Below the pieces are notes generated by a model. The model saw nothing but the letters and a program-made list of their open reading frames with translations, searched no databases and was not told the DNA's origin. A stretch of 64,000 nucleotides of DNA from the NCBI GenBank assembly GCA_017502915.1, contig JAFVUB010000009.1:6232-70231 (forward strand), written 5' to 3'. Both the position numbers and the translations under genes were made by a program. This document shows positions 6,198 through 28,499 of the stretch, piece after piece (position 1 is the first letter of the stretch; each line of letters opens with the position of its first letter). Source of the DNA: Clostridia bacterium. GTDB lineage: Bacteria > Bacillota > Clostridia > Oscillospirales > CAG-272.

Positions 6198-6325
6198 GAG
6201 TTTTTGCAGAACAAATTACACGATCGCTAAATTTCTTATACTTGCGTAAATTGTGGCGTTCCTATCAATGATATAGGAACTAATATATCCGTTCCGATGG
6301 AAATGATTGAAGCAAAAACCTCTCT

Positions 6326-6618: not shown

Positions 6619-7971
6619 ATGCTTTTTAGAAAAATCGAAAGGTTCATCAGAGAATATTTGACTTCAGACAGCAACAAAATCTTAGTGATTGACGGTGCAC
6701 GCCAGATTGGTAAATCATATATCATCCGCGAAGTTGGAAAAGATCTTTACAAAGAAAACTACATTGAAATAAACTTCGTCGAAGATAAGCAGGGGCCTCA
6801 GCTTTTTAAAAACATAAACACTATTGAAGATTTTTACTTCACGCTTAGCACTATCGCTGGCGAAAAAATGAAAGGCAAAGAAAACACCTTAGTATTTATC
6901 GATGAGATTCAAGTATATCCTCAGTTTATCACTCTGCTGAAATTTTTAAAACAAGATAATAAATATACGTATATTGCATCTGGTTCTCTCTTGGGAGTTA
7001 CTCTCTCCAACATAGGATCTATTCCTATTGGATCAATGGAAATCAAGAGAATGTATCAGCTTGATTTCGAAGAGTTTTTGATTGCCAACGGATTTTCACA
7101 AGAAGCAATCAAAATTCTTGAAAACAAATTTTTAGCAAGAGAAACTCTTGACGAAGCAATGCACGACAAGTTGCTGGATTTGTTTAAGAAATATTTAATT
7201 GTCGGCGGACTTCCTGATGCCGTAAATGAATTTTTAAAAACAAGAAACGTTGTTGCTATACGCAAAATCCAAGAAGACATAAAAACATTTTATGGAGAGG
7301 ATGCGTCTCAATACGATATTGAGAACAAATTAAAAATCAAGCGTATATACGATTATATTCCATCGGTTATGCAGAACACCAAAAAACGCATCGTGGCAAA
7401 AGATATAGAAGGCATCGTCGGAAAACGCTTTGCGAACTATGTTAATGAATTTGACTACTTGATTTCTTCCGGGATAGCACTCGAGGTTAAAGCTATTTCC
7501 AATCCCGTTTTTCCTTTAATTCAATCAGCAGATAAAAACCTTCTCAAACTTTATATGAACGACGTAGGTTTGCTCTCCGGTATTTTGTATAACAATAACG
7601 CAAAACCGATTCTTGAAGACGTGCGATCAGTTAACCTTGGCGCTCTTTACGAAACAGCAGTGGCAGGCCAGCTTAAAGCTCTCGACCATAAACTCTTTTA
7701 TTACGATAACAGAAATAATGGTGAAGTTGATTTTATGATTGACGATTACGATAATCTTGCGGTTCTTCCCGTAGAAGTAAAAAGCGGAAGAGATTACACC
7801 ACTCACAGTGCGCTGAATCATTTTATCACCAATGATAACTATCCCGTTAAAGCCGGATATGTTTTATCAAATGAAAGAGAAATTAAAACCGTAGGCAAAA
7901 TCACGTACTTCCCTATATATTTCGTAATGTTTCTTAAACCAATATCAAGCGCTGATGAGGTCTTGATATAA
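6619..7971 (+). CDS. AAA+ ATPase with a DUF4143-type C-terminal domain (COG1373-like)
   Basis: Trimmed from track ORF 6556..7971 to the ATG with an RBS (MLFRKIERFIREYL...). Motifs: Walker A GARQIGKS, Walker B LVFIDEIQ, and C-terminal GEVDFMI...PVEVKSG, a PD-(D/E)XK-like D...E-x-K typical of DUF4143. Confidence 0.7.
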   Translation: MLFRKIERFIREYLTSDSNKILVIDGARQIGKSYIIREVGKDLYKENYIEINFVEDKQGPQLFKNINTIEDFYFTLSTIAGEKMKGKENTLVFIDEIQVYPQFITLLKFLKQDNKYTYIASGSLLGVTLSNIGSIPIGSMEIKRMYQLDFEEFLIANGFSQEAIKILENKFLARETLDEAMHDKLLDLFKKYLIVGGLPDAVNEFLKTRNVVAIRKIQEDIKTFYGEDASQYDIENKLKIKRIYDYIPSVMQNTKKRIVAKDIEGIVGKRFANYVNEFDYLISSGIALEVKAISNPVFPLIQSADKNLLKLYMNDVGLLSGILYNNNAKPILEDVRSVNLGALYETAVAGQLKALDHKLFYYDNRNNGEVDFMIDDYDNLAVLPVEVKSGRDYTTHSALNHFITNDNYPVKAGYVLSNEREIKTVGKITYFPIYFVMFLKPISSADEVLI

Positions 7972-8000
7972 AATCATATTTTATGCCTTGAAAAAAAGAA

Positions 8001-8040
8001 AAGCCGATGAAGATTGCTTTGTTCTTCATCGGCTTTTCTT
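8001..8040 (+). terminator. Rho-independent terminator of the AAA+ ATPase gene
   Basis: A 12 bp stem, aagccgatgaag (8001-8012) paired with cttcatcggctt (8024-8035), followed by a T-rich tail. Confidence 0.7.
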
Positions 8041-8073
8041 TGTTTAGTGCTGACCAATTTTTTACCATTAGAC
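8037..8073 (+). repeat. Imperfect direct repeat, copy B (tctttgtttagtgctgaccaattttttaccattagac)
   Basis: Matches copy A at 6326-6363. It lies immediately 3' of the ATPase terminator. Confidence 0.7.
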
Positions 8074-8389
8074 GCCTTTTAAACTATAGTTTTTCTTCTT
8101 CCAAAGGCTATATGTTTTTCGAAAGAAAGCAGAAAAACACCTTTGCAAAACCGCTCTAAATGTTTACATAAAGGAACACATCTTTTGCCTGTAATAATGT
8201 TGTTTTTTCTCAAAACAACTAATCTACATTTTTCCTCTATACCTCTATTTTTGACACCAACGAATTCCGGAACATACGGAAACAACGGAAAATTTACTAC
8301 AAAACAGCACATTTTACTGGAAAATATGGAAAATTTGCAACGCAAAGTTTACAAAATACGCTTATCGGTCCGTTGGGGTGGTAGAGGCC

Positions 8390-8904: not shown

Positions 8905-11103
8905 TTACGGCAGCGTCACCTTGAATATGCGATCGGTCGGAGCAATTTCCTTACCGTCATGGAAGCACAAAGCACCCGATTCGTACAAAACGTAGAGTGC
9001 GCCGTCGTATACCGAAAGTCCCTGCGACATCGACATAGTAACGTAGCTCTCACCTTCAGCTTTAGAGTCGAGGAACCAAACGGGAACGCTCTTTCCGTTG
9101 AGAGTAACGGTGGTGTGCGCGGGCTCCTTGGTAACGTTATCGTAAACAATAAGCGTTGAGTTCACCTTATTTCCATACGAACGGCTAAGCACTATTTTAT
9201 CACCGATAACCGTAAAACCCTGGAACTTTTGATCTATCGAGAGTACTATATCCGGAGTTGCATACTGCATTCCGTCAACATACGCATCTTTGGCAAGTCC
9301 GCTCTCGGTTTCGTCGGTTATTATGTAGCCTACACACCAAGCTCCGTACTTTTTACCGTCACGGTTTGTCATATGGCGCCAGGTGGGGGTTGCATATTCG
9401 CTGTCGTTCGGAATATAAAAATCGCCAACCCACAGTATTCCGTCGGAATAGTTACAGAAGGACGCACGCGTCGGTACAGGAATTTCTTCCACAATTTTAA
9501 TCGTTGCCTGAAGTCCGTCTTCTTCAAAGGCAGATAACGGTATTCTGAAAAGCTTCTCCTCGGACGCTATAAACACGTTATCCTCGGTTACGGCAACACC
9601 GCCGGCATGGCTTGTGTGCTTTGAGCCGTCAACGTTTAAGATGCGATATTCGCCTACCTTTTTCCCGGTTTTTACATTAACCGTCAAAATCACAGACGTA
9701 TCGGAATAGGTATAATCCTTAAAATATCCGGAGATAAAGATAAGCTCTTTTTCTTCAGAAATATCCATTCCCTGAGGAATGAAGCCTTGCTTAAGACCGG
9801 GAACTACGGCGTCGGGCGTTGCGATGGCATTGAATTTGCTGTACGCAGGCTTCGTATATTTGTTGGTCGAAACGGTTCTATCCTGCGAGAAGACAAAGTC
9901 GTAGGCATATTTCGCTTCTTCATCATCGGGATCGATAGCCATTTCATTAGGAAGAACCTCGAAATGAACCGTTCCGTCAAGTCGGGTTGCATCCGCAAAC
10001 TCAAAAACGTCTTCCTCGGGATTTTCTACCTTTTCAACGTCGATAACGAATTCGTCACCTGCGGTTACAAAAACGTCTGCCACAGAGAAATAGGTCTCAG
10101 TTCCGGGCTTCGATCTCTTGTCGCCGATCACATAGGGGAACACGTATCTGTCTGCTGCTACATCACCCGTATAAACGATTTCTCCGTTTTTAACCTTTGC
10201 GGTATAAAGAAGATTTGGGTCGCTGTTGTCGGCGTCGTATATAACCTTGTACGAGGAAAGCTTAACTCCGTCAACGTAAAGAGTTGCAATAACGTCGTGC
10301 TTTACACTTCCGCTTACGATACGAGAGGTCTGATGAAGCTGAATTCCGATTCTGTGCCAACCGTAGTCGCCTATCATCGGGTAATCGTCCTCGGTCGCCG
10401 TGACCTTAAGTCCGTCGGGAATAGAAGGACCGTATATTATCTGCGTGTTGTTATCCGACTCAAATCCGCCGGCATACTGACACCACATCTTAGAGCCAAT
10501 ATCATCTACAAGAAGCAGATGATACGGGGTTTTTCTTGTGCCGCTGGTATTGCCACTGCTATCGCAGAGCATACCGAAATAAAGATAGTACGCGCCTGCC
10601 GAGTTGTTATTATTCGCAAGAGTTTCGTTCCAAAGGAAGGAAAGCTCTACGAAAAGGTCGTTGCCGTCCGGATCGTCTGCTGTGGGATAAAAATGCTTAT
10701 CTCCGAGAACGTCGGTCTTAATGTTAACCTTTTCAGTATGCTTGTTTGAAGCGTTTTCGTCAAAAATTGCGCTCTGGGGAACGGTTTCACTAAGAACTAC
10801 GCTTATTTCCTCGTGACAGCTGTCGCATTCGCCCGTCTTTGTGCCCTTGCTGAACGCCGTAGGACGAACTATTGTATCAAACGTTACACTTTCGTGATAA
10901 CAAGCTCCGGGCGTTTCGGGTGTTTCCGGCGTTTCGGGAGAGGCGGACGTTTCCGAGTCTTCCGATGTTTCCGATGTTTCCGGGGCTTCCGATGCTTCCG
11001 GCGCTTTTGGCGTTTCCTGTTTGTTACATCCAACCACCGCAAGCATCACCGACAGTGTCAACAGAGCTACCATAAATGCACATAAAATTCTTTTAATCTT
11101 CAT
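8905..11103 (-). CDS. Lipoprotein of unknown function with an acidic S/T/E/P-rich linker
   Basis: Trimmed to the ATG at 11103, preceded by an AGGAGA RBS. The N-terminus MKIKRILCAFMVALLTLSVMLAVVGC is a signal peptide with a lipobox. The linker reads PEASEAPETSETSEDSETSASPETPETPETP. I do not recognise a family for the large C-terminal part. Confidence 0.6.
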   Translation of the reverse strand: MKIKRILCAFMVALLTLSVMLAVVGCNKQETPKAPEASEAPETSETSEDSETSASPETPETPETPGACYHESVTFDTIVRPTAFSKGTKTGECDSCHEEISVVLSETVPQSAIFDENASNKHTEKVNIKTDVLGDKHFYPTADDPDGNDLFVELSFLWNETLANNNNSAGAYYLYFGMLCDSSGNTSGTRKTPYHLLLVDDIGSKMWCQYAGGFESDNNTQIIYGPSIPDGLKVTATEDDYPMIGDYGWHRIGIQLHQTSRIVSGSVKHDVIATLYVDGVKLSSYKVIYDADNSDPNLLYTAKVKNGEIVYTGDVAADRYVFPYVIGDKRSKPGTETYFSVADVFVTAGDEFVIDVEKVENPEEDVFEFADATRLDGTVHFEVLPNEMAIDPDDEEAKYAYDFVFSQDRTVSTNKYTKPAYSKFNAIATPDAVVPGLKQGFIPQGMDISEEKELIFISGYFKDYTYSDTSVILTVNVKTGKKVGEYRILNVDGSKHTSHAGGVAVTEDNVFIASEEKLFRIPLSAFEEDGLQATIKIVEEIPVPTRASFCNYSDGILWVGDFYIPNDSEYATPTWRHMTNRDGKKYGAWCVGYIITDETESGLAKDAYVDGMQYATPDIVLSIDQKFQGFTVIGDKIVLSRSYGNKVNSTLIVYDNVTKEPAHTTVTLNGKSVPVWFLDSKAEGESYVTMSMSQGLSVYDGALYVLYESGALCFHDGKEIAPTDRIFKVTLP

Positions 11104-11239
11104 ATTGAAAATTCTCCTGCAAATTATATATGATCGCCGCATAAAATGCAGCAATTGATTTGCTCGTCAAAGCCATTTTCTGTATGATTATTATATCATA
11201 ATATGCAGATATCCTGCAAGGATCACGATACGTTTCTTG

Positions 11240-12982
11240 TTATTTATTAAGCTTAACATCTATATAGATGGGGCAATGATCGGAGGCATTGAGCGCTGTA
11301 TTGCAGGTCAATCTGTTATAGAACAGCACTTCCTGTCCGGGAGATACCGCGATATGGTCGATACACAGCTTATCGCCGGGGACAGATGATCCCAGCGTAT
11401 GCGTTGTCCTTCCTGCGTTGACTATTTTTTTAGCCTTATATTTGGGATCGGTCATCTTCGTTGCCTTCAGAAAATCGTCAAACAGGTCTTCCTCATTACT
11501 GTTATAGTCTCCGGTTGCAAATATGGGCAGCTTATACTTTTCATAAAGGTCGTTTATGAGCTTGGCATTCTCTCCACACTGCACCTGACGCTTATCGTCT
11601 GTTATATCCCAGTGTGTGCAGGTGACGATATATTCCGCCCCGTCTGACTTACGGCGGAAGCGCGCCCACGTAAGGTTACGCATACTGTCACTGTTTCGAA
11701 CACTATACAGTGTGGTCTTACACTCGATCAGCTCGGTGGTGTGAATATTATACATAAGAGTAGAATAGTTGACCTTACCGCCGGGAACCTTATAGCTTGC
11801 GAATTTATACACTCCGTCAAGCCGAGACTCAAGCAGCGAGTACCACAGTTGAGTAGTTTCCTGAAGACCGATAACGTCGGGCAGGTACGAAAGAATGATC
11901 TCAGAGGTGTTTTTATCGCGACCGGGCAGAGTTGCCGCTGCCTTGTCGTCCCACAGCTCTGCAAGAACGTTGAAGGACATTATGCGAAGATCTGCGCCCT
12001 CGGCAAGCGTGGGGTCATACGAGCCCTTGAGGGCGACGTTACTCGAAACAACATTATCGTAAGCTTCCGGAATGCGGACGGTGTTGCTATAGACTCCGGA
12101 CATGAAGGTGGATTCAAACTTGTCAACGGCGAGAGAAGTTGCCGTTTCAGCGCAAGATCCGATAATTATTTTCTGACCGACTACTTTGATAGCATATCCA
12201 AGACCTGACATATCTTTCACGTGCACAGATTCCTCTCTGGACGTAAATCCTATAATAATTTCCTTGGGAGAAACGGCAGTGCTGTCGTCAACGCAATTGA
12301 GTTTTACACCGCAGTAACTCTCGATATCTGCAGCAAACTCCTTGGCGCAATTCATCATATACGAATCTCCCTTTGCATATACTATCCGATATTCGCTTAG
12401 CTGCTCTGGAGAAGAGATAAGATCGCGGATACCTGAATTCGAAACGGATTCACTTTTGAGCTTAATCACTTTGTTTGTTCCTTCGCCCTCGGCTGTAATT
12501 AAGTTGTTGATCAAATAGTCGACGGCTTCTTTGAGCGTTTTTTCGGAATGAGCTGCGATGACCACCTTGTTTCCGATCTTTTTTATGGCAAAATCGGAAT
12601 ATGCAACATCCTTAACAGCCTCTGCGGACTCCGGGCGATTTGTGTTGGCAATCAGTATTTCAAGCGCATTGGGATCGGGCTCCATACCGGCTTTAAGAAA
12701 ATCTGTTTTTGTGTTGACCTTATTGATGTCGGTCATTTCGTCGATCGCCTTTTGAAAATCGGAAACGATGTCGATAACAGCCCTTGGGGCCTTCACAGCA
12801 TACGTAATGACATACGAGGTGCTTTCGTCAAACAACACCAGATCGACCGGCTGCTCGGAAGCCGGAGGCTCCTCGGCAGACGTATTCGTATCACCGGGTG
12901 TAACGACTGTTGTAGGGGCGCAGGATGCCAATGCGATCACTACAAGCAACAGCGCTATTGCGATTTTAAGTTTCGATTTCAT
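11240..12982 (-). CDS. Lipoprotein with a C-terminal endonuclease/exonuclease/phosphatase (EEP) domain
   Basis: Lipobox in MKSKLKIAIALLLVVIALASC. EEP motifs seen: LRIMSFNVL, IGLQETT, DHIAVS and SDHCPIYIDVKL. Confidence 0.7.
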   Translation of the reverse strand: MKSKLKIAIALLLVVIALASCAPTTVVTPGDTNTSAEEPPASEQPVDLVLFDESTSYVITYAVKAPRAVIDIVSDFQKAIDEMTDINKVNTKTDFLKAGMEPDPNALEILIANTNRPESAEAVKDVAYSDFAIKKIGNKVVIAAHSEKTLKEAVDYLINNLITAEGEGTNKVIKLKSESVSNSGIRDLISSPEQLSEYRIVYAKGDSYMMNCAKEFAADIESYCGVKLNCVDDSTAVSPKEIIIGFTSREESVHVKDMSGLGYAIKVVGQKIIIGSCAETATSLAVDKFESTFMSGVYSNTVRIPEAYDNVVSSNVALKGSYDPTLAEGADLRIMSFNVLAELWDDKAAATLPGRDKNTSEIILSYLPDVIGLQETTQLWYSLLESRLDGVYKFASYKVPGGKVNYSTLMYNIHTTELIECKTTLYSVRNSDSMRNLTWARFRRKSDGAEYIVTCTHWDITDDKRQVQCGENAKLINDLYEKYKLPIFATGDYNSNEEDLFDDFLKATKMTDPKYKAKKIVNAGRTTHTLGSSVPGDKLCIDHIAVSPGQEVLFYNRLTCNTALNASDHCPIYIDVKLNK

Positions 12983-20635: not shown

Positions 20636-21373
20636 TTATTTTACGCTTTCGGCATATTCGATAAGCTCTTCGAGATCACATTCGGTTGAAGCGATATAAT
20701 AAAAATACTCGCTGTCGCTCCACAAGATAATTATCTCATACTTGCTCACGTATTCAACGACCGTCGCATCGTTGCCGTTGATCTTAATATACGTAACGTC
20801 CACGTCTTCGTTATCAACATGGTTATAGTTTGGCTTAAGCAACCTCTGCGAAAAGGAGAAAAGATATTCGTCGTTAAAATAGTAATCAACAACAAACGTT
20901 GAGAGATTTTGTAATAAAATATCCTCCCGCACGCCCTCCGGCAGATCAGTAGGCTTTCGTATTTCTTCTATGCTCGTCGGGGCTGTCGGCTGTCCGTCGT
21001 TGGTATCAGTGGGCTCGGTCTCGGGCTCGCTTCCGCCGGGCGTTTCAAAGCGCACCGCAAAGCAGTTATCGTACCACTCGATGATCGCGCCGAATATCGC
21101 CTCTCTCCATTCGGGCACGCAGCCTATCATAATGCAACCGAGCATTGATATTATCATTATCGCCGCCGCAACGCGTAACGTCACGGTTCTTGCGCGCTTT
21201 AAGGCTGGTCTGCGTTTGCGTCCGTTAATCATCTTGGCCCTTTTTCTATAATACGAGGGGTCAAATTTTACCGACGAGGTATCAAGCTCATTAAGCTCCT
21301 TCGCATCCTCCTCGGCGCATTTCATTGCCGCTAAAGCGATCAAATGATCGAATTTATCCGATTTATTATACAT
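20636..21373 (-). CDS. Putative anti-sigma factor (single-pass membrane protein, DUF4367-like)
   Basis: Cytoplasmic N-domain, a TM segment (VAAAIMIISMLGCIMIGCV) and an extracytoplasmic domain. Its start overlaps the upstream sigma gene's stop by 8 nt. Confidence 0.55.
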   Translation of the reverse strand: MYNKSDKFDHLIALAAMKCAEEDAKELNELDTSSVKFDPSYYRKRAKMINGRKRRPALKRARTVTLRVAAAIMIISMLGCIMIGCVPEWREAIFGAIIEWYDNCFAVRFETPGGSEPETEPTDTNDGQPTAPTSIEEIRKPTDLPEGVREDILLQNLSTFVVDYYFNDEYLFSFSQRLLKPNYNHVDNEDVDVTYIKINGNDATVVEYVSKYEIIILWSDSEYFYYIASTECDLEELIEYAESVK

Positions 21374-21950
21374 ACAGATCCTTACCTCCCATCTTCAAAA
21401 GCTGCGCTCGCGCGCGTGAATATCTCTTTCTGACCAGTGCCTCCGAGATATTCATTATCTGGGCTATCATTTTGGTTTCAGCTCCCATACTTTTAAGTAT
21501 CACGATATCACGGTACTTTTCATCAAGCTTATTTACCAATTTATGAAGATTATCGCAATTCTCCTCACTGATATATATTTCTTCGACGCTCGACGAATAA
21601 TCGGGAATCTCCATTTCCACGTATTCCCCTTCCTCGTAGTCAAATACCACGAGAGGCTGCTCGTATTTGTTTCTTCGCCTTTTAATGCGTAAGGCGTTCA
21701 GAGCGCAGTTTCGTCCCACCACCGGGATCAGCTTGTCAAGATAGCCCTTGTCTCGCGCCAACTTGAATTTATCAATGCTGTATATCAGCGTGGCAACCAC
21801 CTCGTGCACGCAGTCCTGCGCCTCCTCGTGGTCGTGCAGATACTTCATGGCAATCAAATACAGCTGATGCTCATATTCTATGTATATCTTTTCAACGAAA
21901 TCGCCGTCGTCATCATTAACAACGGTTAAAATTATCGGCAACATATACAC
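21366..21950 (-). CDS. Sigma-70 family (ECF-like) RNA polymerase sigma factor
   Basis: Region 2-like sequence YLHDHEEAQDCVHEVV. Region 4 HTH sequence IVILKSMGAETKMIAQIMNISEALVRKRYSRAR. Confidence 0.7.
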   Translation of the reverse strand: MYMLPIILTVVNDDDGDFVEKIYIEYEHQLYLIAMKYLHDHEEAQDCVHEVVATLIYSIDKFKLARDKGYLDKLIPVVGRNCALNALRIKRRRNKYEQPLVVFDYEEGEYVEMEIPDYSSSVEEIYISEENCDNLHKLVNKLDEKYRDIVILKSMGAETKMIAQIMNISEALVRKRYSRARAQLLKMGGKDLYV

Positions 21951-22684: not shown

Positions 22685-22729
22685 AGGCAGCAAAAGCATA
22701 AAAGACATAGGCTTTCGCCTATGTCTTTG

Positions 22730-24160
22730 TTATTTCAAAAGCGAGATCGCGTCTCCGATCGTCTTCTCGAATGCCTCGCGGCCGTATTTATCAACGTCGC
22801 TCTTGCTCTTATCTCCGTGAGTTAAGCAGCCCGCGCCGCCGATGCAACCGCCGACACACGCCATTCCCTCAATGAAGTTTCCGTCGAGAACGCCCTTGTT
22901 GAGCTTGAGCAGTGCCATTCGGCAAGCCTCGATGCCGTCGCAAACGACAGGCTTGATCTCAAAGTCTATGTTCTGCTCCTTCATCGCCTGAACTGCCGCA
23001 TCAGTCAGTCCTCCGCTTCGGGCGAAGATTCGTCCGAAATACGACGCGTTATCGAGAACCCCCTCCTCAAGCGAGGCGATATCGAGATCTCGGCTGTCGA
23101 ACAGTGCCTGAAGCTCCTCAAAGGTCAGCACGGCGTCAAGATAGGGCTTAACCGTTTCAAGATGCGCCTCCGATTTCTTGGCAGTACAAGGTCCTATGAA
23201 GATGACCTTAGCCCCCGGTGTGGTCTCCTTTATATACTTGGCAAGTGCCGCCATAGGCGAGAGGTTATGCGAAACGTGCTTCAAAAGACTCGGGAAATTC
23301 AGCTCTATATATCTGACGAACGCCGGGCAGCACGAGCTTGTTAGCAGTCCCTTTTCGGCGAGCTCCTTTGCCTCTGCCATAGCCACCATATCGGCTCCGA
23401 GCGCCGCCTCAATAACGTCGTGGAAGCCGAGCTTCTTGAGTCCGGTAACGACCTGACCGAGCTTGGCGTACGAGAACTGGCTGGAGATAGAGGGAGCAAC
23501 GACAGCATAGACCTTATAGCTTCCGCCGTGCGGATTTTTTTCGCTCTTCTTGAGAATATCTATCGCGTTAAGTATATAAGACTTATCCGAGATAGCTCCG
23601 AAGGGACACTGATATACGCAGGCGCCGCACTGGATGCACTTCGAGTTATCTATCTTCGCCGCCTTTTCCTCGTTCATCGAGATCGCCTTGATCTTGCAGG
23701 CATTCTGACAGGGACGCTTACGGCTGACGATAGCGGTATAGGGGCAAACTCTGGCACAGGCTCCACATTCCTTACACTTAGATTTGTCTATATGTGCCAC
23801 GTGGTTGTGGTCAAAGGTGATAGCGCCGAAGCGGCAAACGTCCTCGCAACGGTGAGCCAGACAACCGCGGCAGGCGTTGGTGACCTCAAATCCGCCAACG
23901 GGACACTCGTCGCAAGCGATGTCTATTACCTCTATGACGTTGGGATTATTCTGATCTCCCCCCATCGCGAGCTTGACTCTCTCGCCGAGAATGGCTCTCT
24001 CCTTATAAACGCAGCAACGCATAGTCGGTTCTTTACCGGGGACGAGCCTCTTGGGAATATCTATAACGTTTTCGATAAGCTTGTCCTCCCACGCAAGGCG
24101 GGCGACCTCGCGCAGAACCTTATATTTCAAATGCTGTACTTTCGTATCAAATTTACGCAC
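22730..24160 (-). CDS. [FeFe]-hydrogenase, ferredoxin-domain-containing (group-B-like)
   Basis: H-cluster motifs: TSSCCPAF, FIGPCTAKK and IEGMACVGGCIGGAG. Upstream are several CxxCxxCxxxCP 4Fe-4S motifs (CKECGACARVCP, CIQCGACVYQCP). Confidence 0.8.
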   Translation of the reverse strand: MRKFDTKVQHLKYKVLREVARLAWEDKLIENVIDIPKRLVPGKEPTMRCCVYKERAILGERVKLAMGGDQNNPNVIEVIDIACDECPVGGFEVTNACRGCLAHRCEDVCRFGAITFDHNHVAHIDKSKCKECGACARVCPYTAIVSRKRPCQNACKIKAISMNEEKAAKIDNSKCIQCGACVYQCPFGAISDKSYILNAIDILKKSEKNPHGGSYKVYAVVAPSISSQFSYAKLGQVVTGLKKLGFHDVIEAALGADMVAMAEAKELAEKGLLTSSCCPAFVRYIELNFPSLLKHVSHNLSPMAALAKYIKETTPGAKVIFIGPCTAKKSEAHLETVKPYLDAVLTFEELQALFDSRDLDIASLEEGVLDNASYFGRIFARSGGLTDAAVQAMKEQNIDFEIKPVVCDGIEACRMALLKLNKGVLDGNFIEGMACVGGCIGGAGCLTHGDKSKSDVDKYGREAFEKTIGDAISLLK

Positions 24161-24174
24161 TTTTGCCTCCTGAC

Positions 24175-25347
24175 TTAAAAATAACTTACTTTTATGCGCT
24201 TACCCATTTTCTTGAGGCAGCTTGAAAGCTCCTCAACAAGGTTCATTTTTATATTGAAGTTGATCGGCAGATCGGGGTTCTGGTGAGCCGGATTGACCGC
24301 TCTTCCCACGTAGAAGTTGATATCCGTCGCCTCCTCGAACAAAAGCCTTGAGATAAGCGATGCGCCGTCCTTTTTGAAGTTCCACTCCTCGTAAAGCTCA
24401 TTCTCACCGAGATAATCCTTGGCGTACTGAATGACCTTATTCATCGTAATGACGCCCTCGGTCACGAGGTCAACGCCCTCGATATACGCGATGGGGGGAA
24501 CGTCACTGCGCTCAAAGCTCAAGCTGGCGCGGATCGGCTTGCCGAGGTATTTTGCCGCGATCGACGAGGTCGTGCCTCCGCAGACGATATGCTTGCCCTC
24601 CTTTGAGAAGAAGAGCGACATCATTCGGTTTGCATCGTCTCGGTTGGACGGCGGACCGAACAGAATGTTCATCGGCTCTCTCTTGCGGATCTTGACGACG
24701 CAGCAGGTAGTATCGTCTCCCGGCTTGTTGCCGTAGAGCTTATCACATTCGTCGACCAGCATAGTAGACAGATTTTTCGCGGTATACCCGCCGGCAACTA
24801 TAGCCTGCATATACTCGGCAATATCCTCGACCTTCCAGCCGAAGTTATACTTCCCGCCCATTCCCGCGTGAGGACAACCGTCGCTCATCGCGATGAAAAC
24901 GTCGTTCTCCTGCAACGTCACGGTCGACTTATATATCTTCTTGCCGCCGATGTTCATCTCGGTCTTGGGATAGTCGTACACCTCGTAGTCCCTTATAACT
25001 ATGACGTGCGGATTATCGTACTGAATGATCTCGGCGGTCTCATTGTTGAGAATGTGAAGAATGGTAAAGGTCGAATAGGCAACTCCGCGCAGAGAACAGA
25101 CGGGGAGCGTTGCCGCGATGGTGGAAACGCACTCCTCGATCGGAAGACCCGCCGCCATCATAGTCGAGATGATCTTTGACGTGAGGGTCGAGAGTATGCT
25201 CGCCTTAACGCCCGAGCCAAGTCCGTCAGCCAGAACGATGACGATAGAGTTATCGTCCTCCTCAATGACGTCAACGTGGTCGCCGCAAAGCTCCTCGCCA
25301 AAATGGTTTATGCTTTTATATCCGATGTCGGCAAAAAGATTATTCAT
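24175..25347 (-). CDS. SpoIIE/PP2C-family serine phosphatase with an extra C-terminal domain
   Basis: The sequences CGDHVDVIEEDD...VLADGLGSGVKASILS...SDGCPHAG are typical SpoIIE-type PP2C. About 165 C-terminal residues are unassigned. The start overlaps the stop of the upstream hydS-like gene by 8 nt. Confidence 0.75.
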   Translation of the reverse strand: MNNLFADIGYKSINHFGEELCGDHVDVIEEDDNSIVIVLADGLGSGVKASILSTLTSKIISTMMAAGLPIEECVSTIAATLPVCSLRGVAYSTFTILHILNNETAEIIQYDNPHVIVIRDYEVYDYPKTEMNIGGKKIYKSTVTLQENDVFIAMSDGCPHAGMGGKYNFGWKVEDIAEYMQAIVAGGYTAKNLSTMLVDECDKLYGNKPGDDTTCCVVKIRKREPMNILFGPPSNRDDANRMMSLFFSKEGKHIVCGGTTSSIAAKYLGKPIRASLSFERSDVPPIAYIEGVDLVTEGVITMNKVIQYAKDYLGENELYEEWNFKKDGASLISRLLFEEATDINFYVGRAVNPAHQNPDLPINFNIKMNLVEELSSCLKKMGKRIKVSYF

Positions 25348-27019
25348 CGCCCACCGACTCCTTCAGCTTGGTCAGGGCGATCTTGGTCTCTGCCGCCGTC
25401 TCGCCGAGAAGCGACGCGATCTCCTGAACTATTCTCATCTGCTTTTCAACCACTGAATCGGCAACCTCAAGGGTCTGCTTATTGATCCTCGATTTCTTTT
25501 CTCTGTCTGCCTCTTCCTCGGTTATATCTCTCATAATACCGATCAGCATATGAGAATCGGGGTCGTAAACGACGGTCTGCTCAACGTACTTATTATATTC
25601 GGCGAGATAGGTTCGCTGATCGCGAACGATCCTGCCGCTGTTTTTGACTCTGATGAACACCGAGGGGTCGAGTATACGAACGACCGGCTCTCCGAGAACG
25701 TCGGAAGCCGCGCGAATGTTCATTATCTTGCGAGCCGCAGTGTTGATCTGCTGGACCTCAAGGTTCTCGTTGAGAACGATAAGTCCGTTGGGCATATTTT
25801 TAACTATCGTATCCGAGAAGCTCTCCGCCTTGTCCTTTAAGAAGGGCAGACACATAGAGATCTCCGACTTGCCGTGTATTATCGCGATCGCCTTTTCGCG
25901 GCAGGAATTGTATCCGCACGTTCCGCAGTTCAGCTCGTCCGACGGCTTTGTCTTGCCCATCTGACGCAGGACCGACAGGATCTCGTGCTCGGAGGGAGTC
26001 GGGTATTTCGGCTCGATCATAGTAAAATGCTTCTTCAGCTCGCCCGGCGTAGGCTGACCGACCCCGAAATCGCGCTCTCCGGCATAGGCGGCAACCGCCA
26101 TATAGTCCTTGATCGGCGAGGTGCTGTGATATTTTTCCATGACCGGACCGCCAATGCAGCTTCCCACGCAGGCAGACATCTCGATAAAGCACTTATGTAT
26201 CTTTCCGCTTTCAATGTCCTTAAGCGCCGCGATACAGTTCTCAACTCCGTCAAGCGCGAGGTAGGTATATCCCGGCTGATCCTGCGCCATAGTCTTGAGA
26301 ACGCCTCTCGTCGTCGGGAAGAAGCGCGCGCGGCTCTCGGGGGTGTCGTCACACGATCTTTCCAGCTCAACGCCCTCTGCCTTGAGCCAGTTGGTAAGCT
26401 CCTCAAAGGTAAGAACGTCGTCGACCAAGCCCTCGTAGTGCTCCGCCTCGTCCTTCTTCGCAACGCAAGGACCGATAAAAACGGTTTTGGCGTTCGGCAT
26501 TCTCTTCTTTATGTCGGCGCAGTGAGCCTGCATGGGCGACATAACGTCGGCAAGATACTCCAGCGCCGCGGGGAAATACTTCTGAATGAGAAGGTTCACC
26601 GAATGACAGCAGGACGAGATAACTATATCTCTTTCCTCCTCAGCGAGAATCCTCTCGTATTCGGTCTTGACGATGGTCGCACCGACGGCGGTCTCCTCAA
26701 CGTCGTAAAAGCCGAGCTTTTTCAGCGCCGTTCTCATCGACTCGATGCCAACGCCCTCGTAGTTTGCGATAAACGACGGTGCCAGACTTACGACAACGGG
26801 GTCTCCGCTCTGGAGCAGTACCCTTGCCTTTTCGGTTCCGTCAACTATCTCCTTTGCATTCTGCGGGCAAACGACGAAGCAGTGTCCGCAAAGAATACAC
26901 TCGTTTCCTATGATATGCGCCTGATTTCCCGAAAAGCGGATCGCCTTTACGGGGCAGTGACGAATACATTTATAGCAGTTTTTGCAGTTTGATTTTTTCA
27001 AAGTTAAGCAATTCGGCAT
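25340..27019 (-). CDS. hydS: Putative sensory [FeFe]-hydrogenase (HydS-like: 4Fe-4S, H-domain, Cys motif and PAS)
   Basis: N-terminal CKNCYKCIRHCP and CILCGHCFVVCP. H-domain motifs deviate from catalytic ones: ISSCCHS, FIGPCVAKK and IEMSACVGSCIGGP. An extra CGTCGYNSC motif follows. The C-terminal region is PAS-like (IVKNMPNGLIVLNENLEVQQINTAARKIM...). Confidence 0.75.
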   Translation of the reverse strand: MPNCLTLKKSNCKNCYKCIRHCPVKAIRFSGNQAHIIGNECILCGHCFVVCPQNAKEIVDGTEKARVLLQSGDPVVVSLAPSFIANYEGVGIESMRTALKKLGFYDVEETAVGATIVKTEYERILAEEERDIVISSCCHSVNLLIQKYFPAALEYLADVMSPMQAHCADIKKRMPNAKTVFIGPCVAKKDEAEHYEGLVDDVLTFEELTNWLKAEGVELERSCDDTPESRARFFPTTRGVLKTMAQDQPGYTYLALDGVENCIAALKDIESGKIHKCFIEMSACVGSCIGGPVMEKYHSTSPIKDYMAVAAYAGERDFGVGQPTPGELKKHFTMIEPKYPTPSEHEILSVLRQMGKTKPSDELNCGTCGYNSCREKAIAIIHGKSEISMCLPFLKDKAESFSDTIVKNMPNGLIVLNENLEVQQINTAARKIMNIRAASDVLGEPVVRILDPSVFIRVKNSGRIVRDQRTYLAEYNKYVEQTVVYDPDSHMLIGIMRDITEEEADREKKSRINKQTLEVADSVVEKQMRIVQEIASLLGETAAETKIALTKLKESVGDE

Positions 27020-27024
27020 ATCGG

Positions 27025-27288
27025 TTATTTCCTTTCGCTTTCGATCGCGTCGAGAATTTTCTCCTTAAAAAAATCTCTGAAATTATCTCTCGTAACGCCG
27101 ACGTGTACCTCATCGTCCACCGTAACGGTGACGCCGACGCGATTGCACTTTCCGGTGCAAAAGCAGCCCGAAAGCACGATATCATCTTCTATATGATGCT
27201 CCTCTATCGCGCGCTCAAAAAGCTCAACGATCTCTTGCGAGCCCTTGAGATGGCAGGACGAGCCAACACAAATCTGAACAAACAGCAT
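27025..27288 (-). CDS. Thioredoxin-like [2Fe-2S] ferredoxin-domain protein (paralogue 2)
   Basis: Trimmed to MLFVQICVGSSCHLKGSQEIV...GCFCTGKCNRVGVTV. It shares the C-x4-C ... C-x3-C pattern with the upstream paralogue and sits 5 nt upstream of hydS. Confidence 0.65.
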   Translation of the reverse strand: MLFVQICVGSSCHLKGSQEIVELFERAIEEHHIEDDIVLSGCFCTGKCNRVGVTVTVDDEVHVGVTRDNFRDFFKEKILDAIESERK

Positions 27289-27292
27289 ATTT

Positions 27293-27535
27293 TCAGACCC
27301 TTGCCAGAACTTCTTTTGCGAAGAACTCCTCAACCGTTTCGGGAGTTACCGAATGGAAGGCGTCGTTTACCGTTACGCAAACCCCCTGCTGACAGTTTCC
27401 TATGCAAAAGGTTCCGCCAAGCTCGACCTTGTCGCCAACGTTGTTCTCCGCGATGAGCTTCTGCAGCTGCTCAACGACGCGGCGAGAGCCTTTAAGATGG
27501 CAGGAACTTCCGATGCAGATGGTGATCTTGATCAT
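27293..27535 (-). CDS. Thioredoxin-like [2Fe-2S] ferredoxin-domain protein (paralogue 1)
   Basis: The sequence is MIKITICIGSSCHLKGSRRVVEQL...GGTFCIGNCQQGVCVTV. Confidence 0.65.
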   Translation of the reverse strand: MIKITICIGSSCHLKGSRRVVEQLQKLIAENNVGDKVELGGTFCIGNCQQGVCVTVNDAFHSVTPETVEEFFAKEVLARV

Positions 27536-27588: not shown

Positions 27589-28338
27589 TTATTTATAATC
27601 GGCGGCTTCGATCCAGCGCATAAGCAGCTCTTTTTCCTCTGCTTTACCGTTCAAAAGCTGCACTGCCGAAACGAGCGGCAGCCATTTCTTTACGTACTGC
27701 TTTTCGGTATCGCTCATTTCGCAAAATGTCCTGAGATAGAGCTCCGCGCCCTCGACGTCCCCTCTCAAAAGGAAGAGCAGATAGCTTCTTGCAACGTCTG
27801 CCGAGGCGTTTCCCTGCGTCGCGTGCGACCAGTCAATGATATAGGGACGCCCGTCGTCGGTAATAATTATATTCGAGGGGGTGAAATCGCCGTGGCAAAC
27901 CTTGTTGTGCCTCGGCATACCCTCAATTCGGGTGTGCAGATCGTAGCGCGTCGTGGCGTCAAGCTCGGTGGCGGCGATCTTGAGGCTCATCTTGTCCTTC
28001 AGCTTGCTGAGAAGCGGGGAGGACTTGGCGTTGACCTCCATCTGAAGCTTAACGAGAAGGGTTATGTATTCCTCCTTCTTTTCGGGGTTTTCAGTCATCA
28101 GGCGCGAGAGGGTCTTGCCCGAGATGAACTCCGAAACGATAGCCCATTTGCCATCTACCATAGTGACGCCTACTATCTTCGGTATGTTAAGCCCCGTTTC
28201 CTCGATCCTGGCTTGATTGAGCGCCTCGTTCAGCACCTCTGCCTTGGAATACTCCTCGTTAAAGACCTTGATGCATCTGTCTCCGTCGCGATATATCGTC
28301 TTATTATTTCTGACTGCAATAACTCTGTCGAGCCTCAT
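27589..28338 (-). CDS. APH/choline-kinase-fold phosphotransferase
   Basis: The sequence CHGDFTPSNIIITDDGRPYIIDWSHA contains the Brenner motif HxDxxxxN and a DW/DF metal site. Confidence 0.7.
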   Translation of the reverse strand: MRLDRVIAVRNNKTIYRDGDRCIKVFNEEYSKAEVLNEALNQARIEETGLNIPKIVGVTMVDGKWAIVSEFISGKTLSRLMTENPEKKEEYITLLVKLQMEVNAKSSPLLSKLKDKMSLKIAATELDATTRYDLHTRIEGMPRHNKVCHGDFTPSNIIITDDGRPYIIDWSHATQGNASADVARSYLLFLLRGDVEGAELYLRTFCEMSDTEKQYVKKWLPLVSAVQLLNGKAEEKELLMRWIEAADYK

Positions 28339-28499
28339 TCTCCGTCCTCCTTGAATTGCTTTGGCAAGGAAAGCGCCGTTCGTGCCGTTTTATGCACATA
28401 TTTATTATATTGTATCACAAAAAGGCTTACAAATCAAGACGTTTGCTCAATTTACCCCCTGAATTACGGCAAAAAGGGACGCTTTTTTCAAAGCGTCCA

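Follow-up and report, generated by a model that had tools for sequence, protein, structure and literature searches.

The locus described here lies in a window of 64,000 nucleotides (nt), i.e., positions 6,232 to 70,231 of contig JAFVUB010000009.1 in the Clostridia bacterium assembly GCA_017502915.1. It runs from 28338 to 22701 on the minus strand and comprises six co-oriented genes, which encode a kinase-fold phosphotransferase, two small [2Fe-2S] ferredoxins, a HydS-type putative sensory [FeFe]-hydrogenase, a phosphatase and a second [FeFe]-hydrogenase. By sequence comparison, the locus is the ortholog of six of the eight genes of a cluster of Ruminococcus albus 7, carried here by an uncultured gut member of the Oscillospirales (Acutalibacteraceae-like). 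The genes are the following, the last five being taken from the list of open reading frames (ORFs).

27589-28338, minus strand: phosphotransferase gene (249 aa), the sixth co-oriented gene
27293-27535, minus strand: ferredoxin 1 gene (80 aa)
27025-27288, minus strand: ferredoxin 2 gene (87 aa), ATG at 27288 taken as start
25340-27019, minus strand: HydS-type gene (559 aa)
24175-25347, minus strand: phosphatase gene (390 aa)
22730-24160, minus strand: [FeFe]-hydrogenase gene (476 aa), GTG start

From ferredoxin 1 to the hydrogenase the genes are separated, in 5' to 3' order, by 4 nt, 5 nt, an 8-nt overlap (HydS/phosphatase) and 14 nt, and the ORF list thus agrees with the spacing given for these five minus-strand genes in the initial annotation. 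The TTG listed at 27333 is an upstream extension of the ferredoxin 2 ORF; the ATG at 27288 was preferred because Fdx2 of R. albus begins at the equivalent Met.

Three putative transcription signals surround the genes. The promoter-like site and the hairpins are consensus matches and not proof of function.

28477-28498: terminator-like hairpin ending the VanZ gene, upstream of the promoter-like site
28404-28432, minus strand: promoter-like TTGTAA-17-TATAAT (10/12 in a consensus scan), 5' of the phosphotransferase gene
22701-22728, no strand assigned: hairpin with a 12-bp stem and T-tracts on both strands, directly after the hydrogenase stop codon

The phosphotransferase and ferredoxin 1 genes are 53 nt apart and no terminator-like site lies between them. 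A weak terminator-like site (5-bp stem, 22745-22760) still falls within the hydrogenase gene, near its 3' end; the minus strand scanned from there to 28338 contains no further one. The hairpin at 22701-22728 is the likely end of the transcription unit. Both upstream intergenic regions were also checked for inverted repeats and contain none besides the VanZ terminator. Taken together with the synteny described below, these signals make a transcription unit of six genes, from 28338 to 22730 and including the phosphotransferase gene, the best reading.

Proteins encoded by the locus

The domains of the HydS-type protein and of the phosphatase are distributed as follows.

about 26855-26998, minus strand: HydS N-terminal 2x[4Fe-4S]
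26144-26800, minus strand: HydS H-domain
25844-25933, minus strand: HydS Cx2Cx4Cx16C [4Fe-4S] motif
25523-25813, minus strand: HydS PAS domain
25343-25522, minus strand: HydS conserved tail (aa 500-559), probably helical
24688-25347, minus strand: PP2C/SpoIIE domain of the phosphatase (aa 1-220), its start overlapping the HydS stop by 8 nt
24178-24687, minus strand: C-terminal alpha/beta domain of the phosphatase (aa 221-390), family-specific

Pfam assigns to the 559 aa protein two Fer4 domains (aa 8-55), Fe_hyd_lg_C (3.3e-50), PF04060 FeS (aa 363-392, 1.2e-9) and PAS (aa 403-499, 25.2 bits for a cutoff of 22.6). The motifs read in its translation are VISSCCHS, FIGPCVAKKDEA, IEMSACVGSCIGGP and CGTCGYNSC...C, the last with a spacing of exactly Cx2Cx4Cx16C (CGTC-GYNS-C-16 residues-C). 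The SSCCH, MSAC and CGTCGYNSC motifs and the C-terminal PAS domain that had been noticed in the initial annotation are thus all found again. The four H-cluster-ligating Cys (SSCC-H, GPC, MSAC, GSC) are present and coincide, when aligned, with those of the group A structures 8a6t/7p5h. In the alignment to these group A HydA structures the second sphere has two changes, i.e., M353->Gly and M497->Ser (CpI numbering). SSCCH keeps both cysteines and departs from TSCCP only by Thr->Ser and Pro->His; judged from the alignment, the functionally notable changes of HydS are M353->Gly and M497->Ser rather than SSCCH.

Over its full length the 559 aa protein is 70.7% identical to HydS of R. albus 7, with the same motifs, and the latter has been placed in group C (PMC6776011). 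The NCBIfam scores lie below the cutoffs, both for TIGR04105 (194.8 bits, cutoff 450) and for the group A model (75.8 bits, cutoff 406). The loss of C299 is typical of group C and not universal in it. It is not observed here: the equivalent proton-relay Cys is kept, as are the S319 and E282 equivalents (8a6t/7p5h alignment), and R. albus HydS likewise keeps the Cys. Since Cys occupies the C299 position in only 17% of the HydDB group C sequences (PMC10055695), its retention does not exclude membership in group C. These comparisons support the assignment of the 559 aa protein as a group C (M2f) HydS-type putative sensor of subtype C3, and the HydS-like reading of the initial annotation is retained.

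The 60 residues behind the PAS domain carry the motif QEIAxLLGET(T/A)AETK without any histidine; no Pfam family covers this tail.

The two small proteins are thioredoxin-like [2Fe-2S] ferredoxins of the NuoE/HydC type according to their sequences, in line with the two [2Fe-2S] proteins announced earlier: both exceed the PF01257 cutoff of 24.8 bits (36.9 bits for the 80 aa and 31.8 bits for the 87 aa protein). The ligand pattern of the 80 aa ferredoxin is Cx4C...Cx3C (C7/C12/C44/C48). Ferredoxin 2 is a tandem paralog of ferredoxin 1, and their identities to Fdx2 and Fdx1 of R. albus are 57% and 73%, respectively.

The 390 aa protein matches PF07228 (SpoIIE) with 1.5e-14 over aa 31-220 only. Its AlphaFold2 (AF2) model, obtained with a 41-sequence alignment, has a pLDDT (predicted local distance difference test) of 90.2 and a pTM (predicted template modelling score) of 0.89; a model from the single sequence (pLDDT 38) was discarded. 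In Foldseek searches of the PDB, the PP2C domain of the model retrieves SpoIIE (5mqh), 3pu9 and RsbX (3w40) with E from 1e-14 to 1e-11, and the 50 matches listed for the whole model are solely PP2C. D23, D41-G42, D156-G157 and D211-D212 are invariant in 41 diverse homologs. On the basis of sequence and model, the protein is thus assigned to the PPM/PP2C phosphatases (SpoIIE family); its metal-binding Asp residues are intact and it looks active. It is 78% identical to the R. albus ortholog.

The C-terminal domain of the phosphatase is also confidently folded in the AF2 model, with alternating strands and helices (beta-alpha-beta) and five main strands. Its conserved motifs or loops are GPP, CGGTT, DLVTEG, DGAS and VGxAxNPAH. 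The domain had been left unassigned in the initial annotation and so it stays: 26 members have no match in Pfam and NCBIfam, and the best likeness of its profile to the PDB (GmhA/SIS, E=0.12) is weak and not significant. Foldseek against BFVD gives weak hints to GlmS (probability 0.57) and to a Rossmann-fold protein (0.85). An MGS-like or SIS-like domain was considered from the motifs (CGGTT vs. ATGTTG; NPAH vs. AVPH); neither Pfam, NCBIfam, the PDB profile nor hhalign supports it (3.9% for MgsA and 2.2% for GmhA), and the domain is placed in neither family. The hhalign probability for SpoIIAA is 0.4%. When 1.84 billion cluster representatives were searched, 1080 clusters (50% identity) matched the domain at E<=1e-3. 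The domain is fused to PP2C in the full-length proteins among the 150 best listed and in every homolog whose contig was examined. Apparent stand-alone domains of 160-170 aa were rejected: the two that were checked are truncations at contig ends, one continuing upstream, in-frame, into PP2C sequence. A further profile search with the diverse phosphatase alignment retrieved only relatives with 80-90% identity.

The 476 aa translation contains LLTSSCCP, FIGPCTAKK and IEGMACVGGCIGGAGC, i.e., the canonical H-cluster motifs TSSCCP, GPCTAKK and GMACVGGCIGGAG. It reaches 579.7 bits with TIGR04105, «monomeric [FeFe] hydrogenase» (cutoff 450, aa 4-448), and is 74% identical to R. albus HydA2. The second [FeFe]-hydrogenase of the initial annotation is therefore sound. 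From its sequence, this protein is a ferredoxin-type monomeric [FeFe]-hydrogenase, ortholog of HydA2, and group B-type by TIGR04105. All of its closest matches among solved structures belong to group A (E about 1e-31). It must be noticed that the R. albus HydA2 ortholog has been labelled «group A1» (PMC6776011), at odds with the group B-type assignment.

The 249 aa protein matches PF01636 APH (49.4 bits, cutoff 23.2) and the protein-kinase models RIO1 (5e-10) and Bud32. The beta3 Lys, the alphaC Glu, the HxDxxxxN catalytic loop and the DFG-equivalent Asp are all present, and each of 45 orthologs keeps K24, E38, H149-G-D151, N156 and D169. It is 64.5% identical to the R. albus «phosphotransferase» WP_013483408, which is encoded at the same position. 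The sequence thus points to a probably active phosphotransferase with an APH/RIO/Bud32-like protein-kinase fold, whose substrate may be a protein or a small molecule.

Conservation and genomic contexts

The GTDB species-representative genomes were scanned with the diverse phosphatase alignment, and at least 599 candidate stretches encode a relative. The best 80 loci, from metagenome-assembled genomes of gut Acutalibacteraceae/Oscillospiraceae with 78-92% phosphatase identity, were searched by tblastn with ten window proteins. The order Fdx-Fdx-HydS-phosphatase-hydrogenase is kept in about 75 of the 80 and in practically every locus long enough to cover it, and the genes that flank it in the window (VanZ, DUF6512, ECF sigma, DUF4367) are conserved in none of them. 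The arrangement is therefore more than chance, since the order of the five genes is kept while all the flanks differ.

The phosphotransferase gene is directly upstream in 52 of the 73 loci that could be evaluated. The operon limits first proposed (22730-27535) must thus be extended, for they leave out this gene, kept in R. albus, in most close relatives and in a Limadaptatus-like locus (L084) whose phosphatase is 45% identical.

An extracytoplasmic function (ECF)-type sigma gene and an overlapping DUF4367 gene, likely an anti-sigma pair, lie downstream of the operon (20636-21950, minus strand). They were considered as its output and rejected; being absent from all 80 related loci, they are probably unrelated.

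The R. albus 7 cluster on plasmid pRUMAL01 was found by protein search of a plasmid collection. It is given below together with the more distant contexts.

R. albus pRUMAL01, RUMAL_RS17350-17385: Rex, AdhE, phosphotransferase (249 aa), Fdx, Fdx, [Fe-Fe] hydrogenase (558 aa), SpoIIE phosphatase (389 aa), 4Fe-4S/hydrogenase protein (478 aa)
L084 (Limadaptatus-like): Rex-AdhE-APH-Fdx-HydS-PP2C-hydrogenase
L085: Rex-Fdx-HydS-PP2C-hydrogenase
L091 (Monoglobus pectinilyticus): Fdx-HydS-PP2C-hydrogenase
L086: bifurcating HydABC, then Fdx-HydS-PP2C
L081: Fdx-HydS-PP2C, no hydrogenase downstream
L082/L083, 7172-9152: thioredoxin-like [2Fe-2S] ferredoxin (98 aa), PAS-only protein (173 aa), phosphatase with C-terminal domain
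L092 (Acetoanaerobium noterae, NZ_CP154629.1), 6992-8173: phosphatase homolog with C-terminal domain, 39% identity

The first seven are the distant PAS-containing contexts. In all seven the HydS/PAS gene either overlaps that of the phosphatase or lies directly against it, and in all seven a ferredoxin 1 homolog precedes the PAS/HydS gene; the partner of the phosphatase is HydS itself in R. albus, Monoglobus, L081, L084, L085 and L086. The ferredoxin duplication is common to the window, R. albus and the close relatives, and the farther clades have one copy. The L082/L083 cassette has no H-domain and is located inside a cluster of CODH/ACS and NuoE/NuoF-like genes on a Spirochaetia-like metagenome contig. 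The H-domain is thus dispensable to the ferredoxin/PAS/phosphatase core in one CODH/ACS cluster.

The tail behind the PAS domain is conserved from Clostridia to these Spirochaetia-like contigs. Its core, LLGETAAETK in the window, is LLGETTAETK in six of the seven distant loci, the PAS-only protein included, and ends in ...AESK in L086. Such a conservation suggests that the tail is a likely docking element of the sensor. The core cassette, as we infer it from these comparisons, would be made of a thioredoxin-like ferredoxin, a protein with the PAS and tail, and the phosphatase including its C-terminal domain.

The A. noterae phosphatase is preceded by two ORFs resembling CoA-transferase subunits (identified by eye from the sequence). 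The record that carries it (2.6 Mb) is labelled plasmid and is almost unannotated.

Rex, AdhE and L-lactate dehydrogenase (LDH) are recurrent neighbours of the module. Rex is a redox-sensing repressor that senses NADH/NAD+. Its gene is directly 5' of the ferredoxin-HydS module in L008 (5154-5792), L009 (285-911) and L054 (4003-4671), where it was identified by eye; it is also found 5' of the module in L084 and L085 (Pfam domains) and in L087 (annotation). AdhE accompanies Rex in R. albus and L084. An LDH-like gene (315 aa, identified by eye from its N-terminal sequence) is inserted between phosphatase and hydrogenase in L007, L008, L009, L010, L011, L033 and L038, at about 9190-10140 where the phosphatase begins at 8001. 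The same seven loci have no kinase-fold gene upstream. In L016, L018, L020 and L023 an LDH-like gene is divergently upstream.

HPr is a known Ser-phosphorylated protein. A gene for an HPr-family phosphocarrier is found in one genome only, i.e., in Monoglobus (L091, 10083-10340), on the opposite strand and just downstream of the hydrogenase cluster.

Elsewhere in the window, a 749 aa ORF (8905-11154, minus strand) has no Pfam match at E<=1e-5. It adjoins a protein with an Exo_endo_phos domain (11240-12982).

Proposed function and alternatives

The reading favoured here, and considered fairly probable, is that the locus is a group C3 putative H2-sensing module, encoded together with a ferredoxin-dependent H2-evolving hydrogenase thought to be under its control. 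The present analysis itself shows the gene content, the orthology and synteny, the domain folds and the intactness of the catalytic residues; the H2-responsive expression of R. albus and the phenotypes of hfs deletions come from the literature. The module would operate in five steps, of which we infer the last four: (i) H2 would react at the H-cluster of HydS, tuned by M353->Gly and M497->Ser as in TmHydS of Thermotoga maritima; (ii) the redox change would pass to the C-terminal Cx2Cx4Cx16C [4Fe-4S] cluster, the small [2Fe-2S] ferredoxins acting as dedicated redox partners; (iii) the PAS domain and the helical tail would shift in conformation and modulate the activity of the PP2C phosphatase, probably a bound partner of HydS and translationally coupled to it; (iv) the phosphatase, opposed where it is present by the upstream phosphotransferase, would set the phosphorylation of some target; (v) this target would adjust, in expression or activity, the ferredoxin hydrogenase and the NADH-consuming branches (AdhE, LDH). 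The LDH insertion in the seven relatives agrees with the connection already reported between hfs mutations and ethanol/lactate flux.

The initial annotation had proposed that the sensor is wired directly to a SpoIIE-type phosphatase. The 8-nt gene overlap and the translational coupling speak for this proposal; its novelty is lost, for such a pairing is already contained in HydDB group C3 (PMC5037454) and in hfsABCD.

Several points weigh against the H2-sensing module. (i) No experimental demonstration has been published that HydS controls the phosphatase, nor that H2 rather than ferredoxin redox is the signal. (ii) The signalling role of the C-terminal cluster is unproven as of 2026, and the group D hypotheses have been challenged (PMC13104023). 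(iii) Since the C299, S319 and E282 equivalents are retained, the 559 aa protein may turn over H2 better than TmHydS. (iv) No PAS, HydS or ferredoxin gene is near the L092 phosphatase, from which it follows that the phosphatase family is not exclusively hydrogenase-linked. (v) The phosphotransferase is absent in 21 of the 73 close relatives and in five of the seven distant HydS/PAS-linked loci (it is present in R. albus and L084), and among solved structures a choline kinase, which acts on a small molecule, comes closest to it. (vi) A tblastn search of the whole 64 kb window has no match to rex or adhE. (vii) The Rex operator TTGTGAA-N6-TTCACAA, with up to 3 mismatches, is not found near the operon, and its 4 matches in the window are at chance level.

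The phosphotransferase is a candidate for the kinase that opposes the phosphatase. The alternative that it only rides in the operon, as an unrelated kinase acting on small molecules (choline, aminoglycoside or thiamine-kinase-like), is a serious possibility, held with more doubt than confidence. APH is its best Pfam family, choline kinase LicA (4r77, E=1e-4) its best match among solved structures, the nearest of which also include Bud32, and many clades that bear the module are devoid of it. On the other hand, three lineages with different outer flanks, and with phosphatases only 45-78% identical, have it at the same place directly 5' of the ferredoxin gene, and the RIO1/Bud32 models also match it.

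A wider form of the H2-sensing module is put forward tentatively and with considerable doubt. The unit would be the cassette of ferredoxin, PAS-tail protein and PP2C/C-terminal-domain phosphatase, not described as such so far and usable with or without an H-domain; in the Ruminococcus/Acutalibacteraceae lineage the APH/RIO-fold kinase encoded upstream would be its counterpart. In the C-terminal domain of the phosphatase one would see a novel domain for the binding of a ligand or partner, joining metabolic and H2/redox signals and governing the point at which H2, ethanol and lactate formation diverge in gut fermenters.

It is unlikely, but consistent with part of the contexts, that the module reports the redox state of the ferredoxin/Fe-S pool instead of H2, the H-domain being an optional front end that equilibrates this pool with H2. 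L082/L083 has no H-domain and combines the phosphatase with a ferredoxin and with a PAS-only protein that bears the same tail motif; the small ferredoxin is constant in the seven PAS- or HydS-containing contexts; and Rex is a frequent neighbour. However, the H-domain is intact, with its four Cys ligands, in the window and in almost all relatives, and the expression in R. albus tracks the H2 partial pressure (PMC6776011). Both readings can hold together, since H2 would itself be read as a redox change.

The cluster could also be a multi-subunit catalytic hydrogenase («Hfs» as first described), with the 559 aa protein and the ferredoxins as electron-transfer or catalytic subunits and the phosphatase as a minor modulator. 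Indeed hfs was identified as the main H2-producing hydrogenase of Thermoanaerobacterium saccharolyticum, and deletion of the whole operon lowers hydrogenase activity (PMC5707799, PMC11837493). TmHydS and TamHydS (Thermoanaerobacter mathranii, group D) turn over H2 slowly (PMC8163306, PMC10055695), and the proton-relay Cys (C299 equivalent) as well as the S319 and E282 equivalents are kept in the window HydS. Nevertheless this alternative is improbable: (i) a deletion of hfsB only raises hydrogenase activity, and hfsD alone is enough for the phenotype (PMC5707799, PMC11837493); (ii) M353 and M497 are replaced as in the sensory enzymes; (iii) the trio Fdx-HydS-PP2C exists without an adjacent catalytic hydrogenase; (iv) neither a PAS domain nor a phosphatase has a role in a purely catalytic complex.

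That the phosphatase acts directly on the co-encoded hydrogenase (post-translationally) and not on a regulator, as the initial annotation envisaged in naming this enzyme as a possible phospho-substrate, is very improbable and finds no support in the contexts: the two genes are adjacent and probably co-transcribed, and shifts in adhE transcripts leave some enzyme-activity changes of hfs mutants unexplained (PMC5707799), but the module also occurs beside HydABC, beside CODH/ACS or with no hydrogenase downstream, the LDH gene parts phosphatase from hydrogenase in seven relatives, and the regulation in R. albus is at transcript level (111-fold; PMC6776011).

Comparison with known systems

The closest system is that of R. 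albus. The six orthologous genes (57-78% identity) have the same order and orientation and the same 8-nt HydS/PP2C overlap; the tandem ferredoxins and the phosphatase C-terminal domain are also common to both. R. albus HydS shares ISSCCHS, GPCV(A/S)KK, EMSAC and Cx2Cx4Cx16C with that of the window. The differences are that rex and adhE head the R. albus cluster, that the flanks are unrelated and that this cluster is on a megaplasmid. The transcripts of its eight genes go down 111-fold when a syntroph removes H2 (Greening et al. 2019, PMC6776011).

HydDB defines group C3 as «phosphatase-linked (putative)» (PMC5037454), and the window agrees with this definition in that a Ser/Thr phosphatase gene is adjacent to HydS.

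The operon hfsABCD of T. saccharolyticum and T. thermosaccharolyticum was compared by the descriptions of the papers only (PMC5707799, PMC11837493). [quoted passage not shown] Gene-by-gene deletions point to a regulatory role of hfsABCD tied to adhE and to lactate flux. Deletion of hfsB raises adhE expression and ethanol yield, for which intact hfsC and hfsD are needed (PMC5707799). In contrast to the window, no kinase-fold gene has been reported in hfsABCD.

Among the characterized sensory enzymes, TmHydS has the same architecture as the window HydS, i.e., N-terminal 2x[4Fe-4S], H-domain, Cx2Cx4Cx16C and PAS, and the same M353->Gly and M497->Ser (PMC10055695). It differs by Ala at the C299 position, which is Cys in the window (PMC10055695); the proton path of the latter may thus be the more canonical. 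TamHydS (group D, M2e) also has N-terminal clusters, an H-domain with an altered second sphere and a C-terminal Cx2Cx4Cx16C (PMC8163306, PMC13104023), whereas the PAS domain with its helical tail and the PP2C partner distinguish the window HydS from it.

The partner-switching systems (SpoIIE/SpoIIAA/SpoIIAB; RsbU/RsbV/RsbW; Rv1364c) share the SpoIIE-family PP2C fold with the locus, and the window phosphatase would be controlled by a neighbouring sensory PAS element, as RsbP and Rv1364c are. Neither a STAS antagonist, a GHKL anti-sigma kinase (HATPase_c) nor a cognate sigma factor was found by Pfam and NCBIfam among the proteins of the operon or the conserved neighbours, and the initial annotation was right in that no STAS or anti-sigma partner is in the operon. 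The locus has instead the APH/RIO-fold kinase and the novel C-terminal alpha/beta domain.

The orthology with R. albus, the definition of HydDB group C3 and the descriptions of hfsABCD thus lead to the conclusion that the locus is not new in kind and belongs with the R. albus cluster and hfsABCD. Rumen and gut microbiomes are rich in group C sensory [FeFe]-hydrogenases, which are thought to steer the electrons of fermenters to H2, ethanol or lactate, with consequences for methane emission and biofuel yields. The locus brings no new system to this group, of which the R. albus ortholog is the best-studied physiological example. It offers four handles on the output pathway of group C: (i) a candidate opposing kinase, (ii) the putative docking tail of the sensor, (iii) a small ferredoxin partner and (iv) a domain specific to the phosphatase. 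All four are also present in R. albus 7, which is experimentally tractable.

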